This document shows positions 60,308-63,440 of a DNA stretch of 64,000 nucleotides, one piece after another; the first letter of the stretch is position 1; each line of letters opens with the position of its first letter. The stretch is taken from the NCBI RefSeq assembly GCF_000027125.1, contig NC_017627.1. The stretch is one strand, 5' to 3'. The DNA is from Escherichia coli 042 (lineage in GTDB: Bacteria; Pseudomonadota; Gammaproteobacteria; Enterobacterales; Enterobacteriaceae). A program made the translations under genes and the position numbers. The notes below the pieces were generated by a model. The model made no database searches. It was given only the letters and a program-made list of their open reading frames with translations, and was not told the origin of the DNA.

Positions 60308-60308
<1 letters not shown>

Positions 60309-60871
60309 CAGGCACGCAAACGAATAATCATCGTCGGGACATCGGTATAAGCAAACGTGCCGCGCGGCAGCTCCTCGCGGATGTCAGAAAACGGTAACAG
60401 CTTCTCCTGCTGGCGCGGCCCGTTCAGACAGACGGCAACCAGCACGCCCCCCGGACGCAACAGGGAAAAAGCCCGCAGGATATGCCGGATATCCTGCCCG
60501 TGGATGAACGGCGGATTCATAATGATCCGGCTGTAATACTGCACCGGCTGCCATTCCATGAAGTCGCCACACTGTACCCTGACACCGTTAAAATTTTCCC
60601 GCAGATACCGGACCAGCCCGCTGTTAATCTCCACCGCATCACACATGGCCTCCGGCGCGGTATCCCGAATCGCCCGCAGTATGGCCCCGGTGCCGGCAGA
60701 GGGTTCCAGAATGTGATCACGGTTGCTGATTTCCGCCAGCGTCACCAGGCGATCACAGACCGGGGCAGGACTCACAAAAAGCTGAGATTCAGCCCGGATT
60801 TCAGCAACCGGCGCGGCGTTATCCAGCCTTGCGCGCATCAGCCGGATACGTTCTCTTAACTGACTGTGCAT
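60308..60871 (-). CDS. orphan SAM-dependent DNA methyltransferase, probable N6-adenine type
   Basis: 187 aa; motif I ..LEPSAGTGAI.., motif IV ..IIMNPPF..; no adjacent restriction gene in the window. Confidence 0.75.
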
Positions 60872-60917
60872 GTCATTATCTCCGTCATCCCCCGGGGATT
60901 TCCCGGGGGGATATACC

Positions 60918-62279
60918 TTATTTCTGTGGGATTTCCGTGATTTTCATGTCGGTAATATACACATTCACCAGGCGGAAATTATTGTCCATTGTGCGGCGGT
61001 AGCGGTATGCCCCGTGGTCTTCTGTCTCTGCCACACTGCGCACGGCCTTACAGTCCCGGGGCAGGGCGGCCCACTGCGCCTTTGTCATTTCCCGGAAACC
61101 TTCCCCCGGATAGTTGACTACCGGCGGACGCTTCGCGGCCTGACTGGCGACGGCAGCCTCTTCTGCCGATGGTGCTTTGTAGTCCGTGATGCGATCGGGC
61201 GTCACTTTCATCGTGCCGCTGTACCCGAGAAAACTGTAATTTGGCGTTGTGACTGAACTCACCGCCCCGTTGCTTTTGTTCACGCGGATGATGGTCAGCC
61301 ACTCGCCCCGGCTGAAAACCTGTCCGCCCGGCTCAAAATCCTGTGTCCGGGTAACCACGCCGCCGCTTTCGTCCAGCATGGCACGCTCATAGATCAGGCG
61401 GTTCTGATAGTGGTTAACCCAGCGTTGCTGATGCTGAATCTGCCGTTCATGACAGCGGATCGCAATTTCGCGGGCCTGCTCCGTGGTGATGATGTCATCA
61501 TCCAGGGCCGACCATAACGATCGACTTCCTTCATACTGGCTTTTTTCTGCCGGGCGCGGATACCTGTCCAGCGGGAAACAGGCGCTGATATGGTCATGAC
61601 TGCTGATGAGTTTTGCCATATTCAGATCCAGCGATTCAGCCCGCCACATCGTCAGATATTTCTGCGACTGTGCGATGGTCTTTTCCGCCTTGCGCAAATC
61701 AGCTTCGATTTTTTTGATACGACGCCAGCGAACGTCCGGACGTTCTTTATACTTCGCGTGAAGCAGTGCCGACCGCGCCCGCTCTTCCCAGTATTCCGCA
61801 CGTTCAAAGAGCATCACAGCACGTTTCATACCGTTTTCAATACGCTGTGCATCACGACGGGCGCGGCGTTCGCTGTGATGCCCCACAAGAATGGGCTGAC
61901 CGGGCGGGATCATCGCGGCCAGTCTTTCCACTTCATCAAGTGCCTGTGCGGATTCACTGGCCCGCTTTCCGCTGTATCCGGTAAACCGCTCCGCCCGTGC
62001 TTCCTGACGTTCAGCGAGCGTGCTGTCTTCATCCTCAATCTCTCCGGCAAGTGAGAGGAGCACGTCTTCCCGGCCCGGTGTCCAGGCTGGCGCGACAAAC
62101 AGCGCCTGTTTGGGTGCCCAGCGAAAACCGGCATCATGCACTTTTTTATACGTCTCCGGGTCAAGACGTGACGCGGCATACAGGCGCAGTTTGTTGTCAT
62201 CCGGTGAGTAGGTCGCGCGGTACATCTGCACAGGGCTGGCGGCTTCCGGGGCGGTCATGGTGATTGCTGCTAATGTCAT
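60918..62279 (-). CDS. leading-region protein of unknown function (453 aa)
   Basis: Long ORF, basic/acidic helical middle region (..RRARRDAQRIENGMKRAVMLFERAEYWEERARSALLHAKYKERPDVRWRRIKKIEADLRKAEK..); family not assignable by eye. Confidence 0.6.
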   Translation of the reverse strand: MTLAAITMTAPEAASPVQMYRATYSPDDNKLRLYAASRLDPETYKKVHDAGFRWAPKQALFVAPAWTPGREDVLLSLAGEIEDEDSTLAERQEARAERFTGYSGKRASESAQALDEVERLAAMIPPGQPILVGHHSERRARRDAQRIENGMKRAVMLFERAEYWEERARSALLHAKYKERPDVRWRRIKKIEADLRKAEKTIAQSQKYLTMWRAESLDLNMAKLISSHDHISACFPLDRYPRPAEKSQYEGSRSLWSALDDDIITTEQAREIAIRCHERQIQHQQRWVNHYQNRLIYERAMLDESGGVVTRTQDFEPGGQVFSRGEWLTIIRVNKSNGAVSSVTTPNYSFLGYSGTMKVTPDRITDYKAPSAEEAAVASQAAKRPPVVNYPGEGFREMTKAQWAALPRDCKAVRSVAETEDHGAYRYRRTMDNNFRLVNVYITDMKITEIPQK

Positions 62280-62330
62280 AAAATGTTCTCCTTCCGTCTG
62301 TTGCCGCCCCTCGCGGGGCGGCTCACCTCA

Positions 62331-62561
62331 TCAGTTAAAAGCGCGTTTCAGTTCGAGTGTGCGGAGCACCTGCCCGAAAGCCGTATTTTTCATGGCGGGG
62401 ATGTGTACACCACGTCCCCGGTGAAAACTCCGGGCAATGTGTCGCCCGAAGGCTTTCAGCACGGGGTCAATTTCCGGCGCGGGGATGTCTTCGCGTCTGA
62501 AACGGGGATGACGGCGGGGCTTTACAGCCGCTGCGGAAGGTGAAACAATACTTACTGTCAT
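62331..62561 (-). CDS. small basic protein (76 aa), first gene downstream of Frpo-like repeat 3
   Basis: MTVSIVSPSAAAVKPRRHPRFRREDIP..; SD AAGGA upstream. Confidence 0.5.
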   Translation of the reverse strand: MTVSIVSPSAAAVKPRRHPRFRREDIPAPEIDPVLKAFGRHIARSFHRGRGVHIPAMKNTAFGQVLRTLELKRAFN

Positions 62562-62796
62562 AAATGCATCCTTATGACTGTTGACTGGAGCCGCAAAAAC
62601 TGTTCGTGCAGTCTCTGCAGCATGGATTAAGCAGGTTCCTGACCTGCTTTTTTCATATCTGCATCTGACGCTTTCCGGTGTTTTCCTCCTTCTGTTCCTG
62701 CGTTCTCATTACCTGCCAGCCGGATGACTGACAGAACACATAAATGCGTATTGCCGGAGCCTGAAATAAATCCTGATTTTTAAAGAACATCACCCG

Positions 62797-63440
62797 TTGA
62801 GTTTCGGGAGCCGCGGTTTTGACGTTTCGCGGGAACCTGCTGCTGTATTCCCTGTGGTATGAACTTCACCCGTTTGAGAACCTTCGCCGCAAGGGGCATC
62901 ACTGCCACGGCCTGACGCACCTGTCCTGGGCAGAACGCAAAATTTTTTACCGGGTTTTGGGTAAAAATTTTTGTGGGTTGTTCATTTACCCTGGACAGTC
63001 AGTGCGGCAGGTTGTGGCTGTATCAGCCCCCGGCGACAGGGACTCATACGGGTGTGTGGCACCCGGCAGGCAATGAGCAGGGGCCCGCTGCAACGACGAA
63101 GAGCGCGTGCGCGAAACGGCGTTGCGCCTTACATTCCGGCGGCCTTTTGCCGGGATGCCGGGAGCGCAGGCCACGGCGCGACAGAGGCGGCGCGACCGGA
63201 ACGGTCGCTGCAAGCCGGGGGTTTTCACGCATCGGACCGTAGCGACAGCCCGAAACCGCGCCAGCGGGTTCGGCGGAGACTGGCGGGTGCGCCAGCAGCT
63301 GCCTGTCGGAGTCGGGCCTGACGACCGGATGCCGCCAGGCAGCCGGGAGCCGAAGGTGCGTCCGGCAGACAGAACAACACTGCAGTAGTCAGAATCAGAG
63401 CAGCAGATAAAGGAACAACAACATCAGGAACAGTTCCATA
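62797..63440 (-). promoter_or_regulatory. Frpo/ssi-like leading-region repeat, copy 3
   Basis: Near-identical blocks to copies 1 and 2 (e.g. gttgagtttcgggagccgcggttttgacg.., ggcatcactgccacggcctgacgcacctgtcctgggcagaacgcaaaatttttt..). Confidence 0.6.

Follow-up and report, generated by a model that had tools for sequence, protein, structure and literature searches.

A split DUF3560–methyltransferase gene pair behind a Frpo-type repeat in the leading region of an F-type plasmid of Escherichia coli 042

What is an orphan methyltransferase gene, with two companions of unassigned function, doing in the leading region of a conjugative plasmid? The question is raised by three minus-strand genes in a 64,000-nucleotide stretch of contig NC_017627.1 from Escherichia coli 042 (RefSeq assembly GCF_000027125.1; this whole stretch is called the window below), which represents an F-type (MOBF/MPF_F) plasmid. 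A reading made from the letters and their open reading frames (ORFs; the sequence-only reading) had described three separate genes, encoding proteins of 76, 453 and 187 amino acids (aa), that together form a candidate anti-defence module. The ORFs are indeed intact. Near-identical plasmids carry the same trio in RefSeq, where the first gene is annotated as hypothetical protein, the second as DUF3560 domain-containing protein and the third as class I S-adenosylmethionine (SAM)-dependent methyltransferase. From the comparisons set out below, however, the cassette is better described as a split two-part methyltransferase accompanied by a lineage-specific basic protein, under a putative Frpo-type promoter and an antisense RNA.

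The cassette is not a new element. It is known as annotation and is ubiquitous on IncF plasmids: its 2.49-kb block occurs in at least 4,843 PLSDB plasmids at 80% coverage or more, mostly from Escherichia and Klebsiella, and DUF3560 (YdbA) has been catalogued as family 28 of the leading-region-enriched families, with 1,913 members and marked uncharacterized (Samuel et al. 2024). The general interpretation is likewise established as a concept, since orphan methyltransferases are a prominent leading-region function (Samuel et al. 2024) and early anti-defence is the accepted general model for leading regions (Samuel et al. 2024; Fomenkov et al. 2020, PMC7736820). It is reasonable to place the cassette in the leading region and to read its enzyme as an orphan DNA methyltransferase. 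Three points are added here: DUF3560 is linked to the methyltransferase, this enzyme is unrelated to M.EcoGIX, and the antisense RNA AS-pc01 is placed on the cassette.

One polypeptide divided between two genes

A profile search of the 453-aa protein, which the sequence-only reading could not assign, returned DUF3560 (aa 89 to 206, expect value (E) 1.1e-36) as its only Pfam family, and neither NCBIfam nor PADLOC contained a match for it or for the 76-aa protein. Relatives were searched among 1.84 billion representative proteins; 3,899 were found, and the best 150 (representatives at 50% identity) were analysed. Fusions account for 98 of these 150: a complete DUF3560 region, a linker of 40 to 100 residues and a C-terminal methyltransferase, with a median length of 675 aa, the N-terminal 430 to 450 residues corresponding to the 453-aa protein. 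In all 135 aligned relatives Pfam recognises DUF3560, and in up to 92 of them it also finds methyltransferase families. The 453-aa protein and the methyltransferase, previously taken for products of independent genes, are therefore halves of one polypeptide in most relatives and, judged by these architectures, a split version of one protein. Adjacency is kept in the three split occurrences examined, namely the window cassette, a phage-like contig (L014) in which the two genes overlap by 4 nucleotides (nt; stop/start) and the methyltransferase is 38% identical (E 1e-31), and a contig (L013) in which the DUF3560 gene is followed by a fragment of the methyltransferase N-terminus. The enterobacterial split and the three-gene order are common to the E. 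coli and Klebsiella types. Since the methyltransferase clade, conversely, is also found in architectures without DUF3560, DUF3560 would be a dedicated accessory of the enzyme.

All three genes have been under purifying selection in comparison with the Klebsiella IncFII(K) cassette of plasmid CP067952.1 (L009). The ratios of nonsynonymous to synonymous substitution rates (dN/dS), read with synonymous sites near saturation, are 0.113 for the 76-aa gene, 0.084 for the DUF3560 gene and 0.285 for the methyltransferase gene, and the three are therefore real, selected genes. A Shine-Dalgarno sequence precedes each of them. The spacers measure 51 nt (76-aa/453-aa) and 46 nt (453-aa/methyltransferase), and each holds one GC-rich hairpin without a T-run, which could be an mRNA stabiliser, a processing site or a structure in the single-stranded template.

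The 187-aa protein is, by its motifs, a TaqI-like (gamma-class, NPPF) methyltransferase catalytic domain, and its target is probably the N6 position of adenine. Motif I (EPSAGTG, aa 56 to 62) lies N-terminal to motif IV (IIMNPPF, with NPPF at aa 120 to 123); both had been noticed from the letters, as EPSAGTGA and NPPF, and both align with the corresponding motifs of M.TaqI. Of 97 fused relatives, 94 conserve NPPF and 78 conserve EPSAGTG. The M.TaqI catalytic domain was the best match among solved structures (E 4e-6), with only residues 23 to 123 of its 421 aa covered, and the alignment pairs TPPEVVDF with SPAPVCDR, the two glycine motifs, and NPPY with NPPF. The N-terminal TP segment of M.TaqI, which we take to be motif X of DNA amino-methyltransferases, is aligned (TPPEV) with LFVSPAP in the window protein, where it is degenerate; F/Y-P-T-P stands there in 80 of the 97 fused relatives. 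The two enzymes share the order of motifs I and IV, with a putative motif X ahead of them, and an NPP(Y/F) catalytic motif. In M.TaqI the C-terminal half is the target-recognition domain, whereas the window protein has no such domain and ends at residue 187, right behind the catalytic fold. It also has no cognate endonuclease nearby, in agreement with the sequence-only reading, which had seen no restriction partner; its neighbours are ssb, DUF905, ParB-like, DUF1380 and KlcA-type genes.

The strongest profile matches of the enzyme come from phage and defence libraries. Pfam yields weak generic matches only (best MTS, 8.6e-7). PHROG DNA-methyltransferase families and PHROG families of unknown function match at E 1e-21 to 1e-30, most of these profiles being 1,200 to 3,900 positions long, and PADLOC returns mad2 (9e-20) together with several Type II and orphan methyltransferase profiles. 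The domain was also found by tblastn in 235 phage records, where it is annotated variously as DNA methylase or restriction alleviation protein.

The obvious comparison is M.EcoGIX, like M.BceJIV an orphan, single-strand-specific methyltransferase of plasmid leading regions (Fomenkov et al. 2020, PMC7736820). Enzymes of this type are marked by promiscuous, strand-asymmetric m6A on single-stranded DNA; M.EcoGIX acts on the single strand during its entry and gives protection from restriction. The likeness lies in the location on the transferred-strand (T-strand) template of the leading region and the lack of a restriction partner; with M.EcoGIX and M.BceJIV the window enzyme further shares a small size, no obvious specificity domain and a proposed protection against restriction. 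Homology with M.EcoGIX was considered and rejected: BLASTP against the homologue on plasmid F (227 aa) gave E 0.2 over 14 residues round the glycine motif, and the motif order is reversed, motif I lying near the C-terminus of the F protein and near the N-terminus of the 187-aa protein. M.EcoGIX is moreover a single protein, while the window enzyme is tied to a DUF3560 partner of about 450 aa, a tie known here from sequence comparison, and the M.EcoGIX homologue in F is driven by a different class of single-strand promoter. Plasmid pChi7122-2 also has an annotated 227-aa 'DNA methylase', farther from the origin of transfer (oriT). By this comparison, IncF plasmids carry two unrelated leading-region methyltransferases.

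An AlphaFold2 model of the DUF3560 protein, built from 135 diverse sequences, is of high confidence (predicted local distance difference test (pLDDT) 94, predicted template modelling score (pTM) 0.84). It consists of a small alpha/beta domain, three very long helices that make up the Pfam region, a small insert followed by a further long helix, and a beta-rich C-terminal region (Table 1). A nearly invariant loop, GQPILVGHHSE, joins the first two long helices; residues R91, W164, R187 and H290 are invariant, and arginines are frequent among the conserved positions. Neither the profile of the C-terminal beta-rich region nor the full protein (by phmmer) found a match among PDB sequences. The name 'HD hydrolase' carried by DUF3560 proteins in UniProt is unsupported, as Pfam finds DUF3560 alone.

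The third member of the cassette stands apart. The 76-aa protein has an isoelectric point of 11.9 and 234 relatives; among the best 120 listed, most are 76 aa long and all the named ones belong to Enterobacterales, and conservation is strongest in the C-terminal 45 residues. Profile search and structure prediction pointed in different directions: there is a weak match to Pfam PF14908, HU-CCDC81_euk_1 (E 7e-4, aa 25 to 62 only; 19 of 25 homologues at E of 0.001 or below), yet an HU fold is not backed by the AlphaFold2 model (pLDDT 76), in which a low-confidence arginine-rich N-terminal tail precedes a helix-loop-helix of two helices, with no strands and hence no beta arms. Foldseek gave no hit for this model at E of 0.001 or below and no HU among its hits, and the profile of the family found no HU protein in the PDB. 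Nor is the protein a conserved third partner, the small ORFs upstream of fused relatives being unrelated to it; it is best treated as a lineage-specific enterobacterial accessory that probably binds nucleic acid. Of the anti-defence module proposed in the sequence-only reading, then, the leading-region location, the T-strand template and the upstream Frpo-type repeat stand, and the inclusion of the 76-aa gene is not supported, as elsewhere that gene is unlinked to the module.

Transfer polarity, repeat 3 and the antisense RNA

Positions 51682-51696 of the plus strand match the F nic sequence, GGGTGT/GGTGCTTTT, exactly; the plus strand is therefore transferred 5' to 3' from about 51687 towards the window end, and serves as template for minus-strand genes, as had been proposed. 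A direct repeat of about 600 nt occurs in three copies along this path, at 53829-54283, 59399-60039 and 62772-63410, the third of them upstream of the cassette. Over 445 alignment columns copy 3 is 89.9% identical to the Frpo2 region of F and 77.8% identical to the Frpo1 region. On the plus strand the hairpins of about 300 nt in copies 1, 2 and 3 have folding energies of -99, -99 and -86 kcal/mol (DNA parameters), and the most stable 300-nt windows from nic to the window end are those of these repeats. For copy 3 the hairpin core (301 nt, about 62810-63110, on the transferred strand) lies, at -86 kcal/mol, beyond the cut-off of -75 kcal/mol used by Wen et al. (2025), and the repeat segment folds at -91 kcal/mol compared with -59 ± 4.8 for shuffled sequences (z = -6.7).

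In F, Frpo1 and Frpo2 are needed if the leading genes downstream are to be expressed early from single-stranded DNA (Couturier et al. 2023). Like these elements and ssi1-3 of ColIb-P9, all class 1 single-strand promoters (Masai and Arai 1997; Couturier et al. 2023; Wen et al. 2025), repeat 3 forms a predicted T-strand hairpin of about 300 nt and lies, suitably oriented, upstream of leading genes. It differs from the Frpo elements of F in being a third copy that F does not have, and in being followed by a 210-nt leader and an antisense target instead of an immediate gene start. The cassette does lie downstream of a Frpo-type repeat, as the sequence-only reading stated, but not immediately downstream, as the leader of about 210 nt intervenes; it is found behind copy 3 only, copies 1 and 2 running directly into their first gene (alignment columns 1017-1200). 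A duplex scan of the coding strand from 59300 to 63700 (4.4 kb) found no sigma-70-like promoter.

The leader of the Klebsiella L009 cassette includes an annotated 75-aa ORF (4854-5081), with the Frpo repeat on one side of it and AS-pc01 on the other; the corresponding part of the window (62653-62793) holds a predicted ORF of only 46 aa, whose Glu/Lys-rich C-terminal end resembles that of the Klebsiella ORF. At the other end of the cassette, between the methyltransferase stop codon and Frpo repeat 2, a tandem hexamer array of 14.3 copies (60045-60130; unit GAGCAG on the plus strand, CTCCTG/CTACTG on the coding strand) is the source of spurious poly-Leu and (PA)n/(TA)n ORFs. Pyrimidine-rich tracts are also found at the equivalent place upstream of the other repeat copies, but they are far shorter than this array.

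Across the start of the first gene, and missed in the sequence-only reading, runs the antisense RNA gene AS-pc01. The Rfam match scores 94 bits compared with a gathering score of 79 (E 3.4e-16) and spans model positions 1 to 99 of 99. Its promoter is the sole consensus-like one in 59300-63700, and the start predicted from it is position 62556, where the Rfam match begins. In sequence terms the window copy is the same as AS-pc01 of plasmid pHK01, with its own promoter and terminator; the point added here is its placement over the translation start of the first gene in a putatively Frpo-driven cassette. Within the transcript of the 76-aa gene the RNA could pair with about 90 nt of leader, the Shine-Dalgarno sequence and the first two codons, to all of which it is complementary, and its predicted fold exposes the anti-Shine-Dalgarno sequence as the loop of the first hairpin. 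AS-pc01 occurs at the same relative position in pChi7122-2 and two Klebsiella plasmids (95 to 107 bits in the three) and is absent from F. As its template is the minus strand, AS-pc01 can be made only once the complementary strand exists. The predicted mRNA promoter would exist only in single-stranded DNA and that of AS-pc01 only in double-stranded DNA, and this asymmetry suggests a shut-off device: AS-pc01 may help to silence the cassette after double-strand conversion.

A proposed entry-phase enzyme and the alternatives

The function that we favour, and to which we give about an even chance, is that of a DNA methyltransferase in two parts, which would be produced early off single-stranded DNA and would protect the incoming plasmid, the 187-aa protein being the catalytic subunit and DUF3560 its dedicated partner. 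The proposed course of events would be as follows: (i) starting with nic at 51687, the plus strand passes into the recipient; (ii) repeat 3 folds into its hairpin of about 300 nt, which RNA polymerase would use as a promoter; (iii) the 76-aa, DUF3560 and methyltransferase genes would be transcribed off the single-stranded DNA; (iv) the enzyme would methylate the entering plasmid, with low sequence specificity, before host restriction enzymes meet double-stranded DNA, the DUF3560 part providing substrate binding or targeting; (v) synthesis of the complementary strand would abolish the hairpin promoter; and (vi) the AS-pc01 promoter, which is read from the minus strand, would then become usable, its RNA pairing with the ribosome-binding site of the first gene and helping in the shut-off. 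A bolder version, which we think less probable than not, is that DUF3560 is a new accessory module turning a bare, specificity-less methyltransferase into an entry-phase enzyme, and that the cassette works as a circuit which limits itself, a hairpin turning it on and an antisense RNA turning it off; such a module might load the enzyme on single-stranded DNA, on SSB-coated DNA or on the converting replisome.

If the cassette does encode an early two-protein DNA methyltransferase, IncF plasmids, on which most resistance genes of E. coli and Klebsiella are carried, would bear two unrelated entry-phase methyltransferases, and it would be easier to understand why their spread is little hindered by restriction; the number of sequenced plasmids with the cassette, given above, indicates the scale. 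A working role would also be assigned to DUF3560, one of the larger uncharacterized leading-region families, and a catalogued, functionally unexplained antisense RNA would be linked to zygotic induction. The gene neighbourhoods of relatives are those expected for an entry-phase or counter-restriction function: one fused gene adjoins KlcB, KleA and SSB genes on an IncP-like plasmid contig (L005, 10001-12055), another is part of an integrative element that also encodes integrase, resolvase and RadC, a 1,453-aa multi-domain relative is found in a phage contig (L007, 6135-10496), and the phage-like contig with the split pair (L014) also bears a Lar restriction-alleviation gene.

Several observations weigh against this function: (i) no experiment on or functional study of the cassette was found in the literature searched (DUF3560, ydaB/ydbA/ydcA, leading-region methyltransferases); (ii) F has no cassette, so that the published F expression data do not cover this operon, and early transcription from repeat 3 is extrapolated; (iii) -35 and -10 hexamers and a start site were not located in repeat 3, either by eye or by the duplex promoter scan; (iv) the model of DUF3560 found no informative structural match, which makes a DNA-binding role for this protein a guess; (v) the methyltransferase clade is also present without DUF3560 in phages, so that DUF3560 is dispensable for catalysis as such; (vi) fusion in mobile elements can mean co-delivered independent activities, as in polyvalent proteins, and not cooperation; and (vii) the enzyme has weak matches to rRNA and protein (HemK/PrmC) methyltransferases, with Erm, KsgA and PrmC at E of about 1e-7, below the NCBIfam family cut-offs.

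Point (vi) leads to the strongest of the alternatives, possible in our judgement though clearly less probable, in which DUF3560 is an independent effector (an inhibitor or decoy for a host defence or repair factor, or an enzyme built on the GHHSE loop) linked to the methyltransferase as domains are in polyvalent proteins. Such proteins of phages and conjugative elements were reportedly described by Iyer et al. in 2017, and phage P1 DarB is a methyltransferase-containing anti-restriction protein. The likeness lies in the combination of a methyltransferase with other domains in DNA-entry proteins: some relatives of DUF3560 are very long and multi-domain (1394 and 1453 aa), one aligned member matches Pfam LPD29, giant phage proteins with no DUF3560 match also contain the methyltransferase domain, the DUF3560 core stands alone in a few phages, and it has conserved residues and a conserved loop of its own. 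The IncF cassette is, however, the opposite extreme, with small separate genes that would be expressed in the recipient, their products not being delivered with the DNA. Against this alternative stands the recurrent and specific pairing of the same region of about 430 aa with the same methyltransferase clade in 98 of 150 representatives, together with the continued adjacency of the split pairs (window, L014 and L013), which in L014 extends to a stop/start overlap.

A second alternative, which we think improbable, keeps DNA as the substrate and changes the purpose: methylation would serve plasmid DNA processing, by marking the T-strand or acting on complementary-strand synthesis, mismatch repair or early expression control. 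Regulatory roles are possible for plasmid methyltransferases, leading-region elements are known to time the conversion from single to double strand, how M.EcoGIX acts is bound up with the mode of replication (Fomenkov et al. 2020, PMC7736820), and F, without the cassette, gives a transconjugant frequency of about 93% in laboratory matings. The neighbours of the relatives are nevertheless mainly anti-restriction and establishment genes (KlcB, Lar and SSB), and some relatives reside in phages, where conjugative strand conversion does not occur; both facts fit protection of the incoming DNA better than its processing.

More doubtful still is a methyltransferase that reprogrammes the recipient by acting on host RNA or protein, such as rRNA, tRNA or a translation factor, with DUF3560 as substrate adaptor. 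The best curated-family matches are the Erm, KsgA and PrmC ones listed under (vii), the best Pfam match is the MTS small domain of rRNA m2G and HemK enzymes, and the NPPF followed by H/G resembles the RsmC and RlmG motifs; a preprint further reports that another leading-region protein, YfjB, reprogrammes the host. The Erm, KsgA and PrmC matches, however, fall far below their family cut-offs, DNA-methyltransferase profiles score far better (E 1e-20 to 1e-30), and the N-terminal F/Y-x-T-P motif aligns with the TP segment of M.TaqI. That the cassette is a decaying or neutral passenger, its split gene a broken and functionless fusion, is very improbable, for although it is missing from F without obvious harm and the methyltransferase gene is unannotated under the match in some records, dN/dS is 0.08 to 0.29 across lineages with saturated synonymous sites, no catalytic motif is damaged, both halves are equipped with a ribosome-binding site and a start codon, and the block is kept in so many plasmids.

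Apparent rearrangement at the repeats and other features of the window

In plasmid F, Frpo2 directly precedes ssb and is itself preceded by the DUF1380/KlcA block, with no cassette. At positions where repeats 2 and 3 of the window differ, Frpo2 of F is a mosaic (F, L002, 8830-9650, compared with window 59350-60310 and 62560-63600): it agrees with repeat 3 versus repeat 2 at 51 versus 10 positions in columns 1-300 and at 12 versus 2 in columns 700-780, and with repeat 2 at 42 of 42 informative positions from column 780 on, with a mixed stretch between. This pattern fits deletion of the cassette by recombination between two Frpo copies, and could instead have come about by gain through the reverse event or by gene conversion. 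In the Klebsiella plasmid CP067952.1 (1-5100) the cassette lies within about 830 nt of the oriT-proximal DUF945 gene, and the ssb/ParB-like/psiB block that the window and L010 carry is absent, which looks like another rearrangement at Frpo repeats. Taken together, the alignments suggest that the Frpo repeats shuffle leading-region modules. The coordinates of the cassette features and of the parts of the DUF3560 model are collected in Table 1.

Table 1. Features of the cassette (positions in the window, nt) and of the DUF3560 protein model (positions in the protein, aa)
Feature	Position	Strand	Basis
Frpo-type (class 1 single-strand promoter) repeat, copy 3	62772-63410	+	Repeat family, identity to Frpo2, fold
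Cassette mRNA 5' leader, predicted	62562-62771	-	Repeat alignment and sequence
AS-pc01 antisense RNA gene (Rfam RF02875, 'antisense to pHK01_035')	62556-62652	+	Rfam
AS-pc01 sigma-70-like promoter, TTTACA-17-AACAAT with TG	62521-62549	+	Promoter scan
AS-pc01 terminator hairpin and T-run	62629-62649	+	Scan
76-aa basic protein gene	62331-62561	-	ORF
GC-rich hairpin GCCGCCCC-GCGA-GGGGCGGC, spacer between 76-aa and 453-aa genes	62303-62322	-	Read from sequence
453-aa DUF3560 protein gene (YdbA family)	60918-62279	-	ORF, Pfam PF12083
GC-rich hairpin TCCCCCCGGG-AAAT-CCCCGGGGGA, spacer at the split point, followed by GGAG and the methyltransferase ATG	60888-60911	-	Read from sequence
187-aa gamma-class (TaqI-like) amino-methyltransferase gene	60308-60871	-	ORF, profile matches
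DUF3560 model: small alpha/beta domain	aa 20-83		AlphaFold2
DUF3560 model: three very long helices (Pfam DUF3560 region)	aa 88-212		AlphaFold2
DUF3560 model: long helix after the small insert	aa 266-304		AlphaFold2
DUF3560 model: beta-rich C-terminal region	aa 320-442		AlphaFold2

Two further structures lie between nic and the cassette. A perfect 56-nt palindrome at 52533-52588 (28-nt arms, no spacer, core AAAGCCCCGAAAAA/TTTTTCGGGGCTTT), at a distance of about 850 nt from nic, has the appearance of a terminator for both directions and gave rise to spurious sub-threshold Rfam matches on both strands. Between Frpo repeats 1 and 2, as in F, lies a sok antitoxin RNA of the hok/sok type (54822-54993, minus strand), which scores 95 bits compared with a gathering score of 59.

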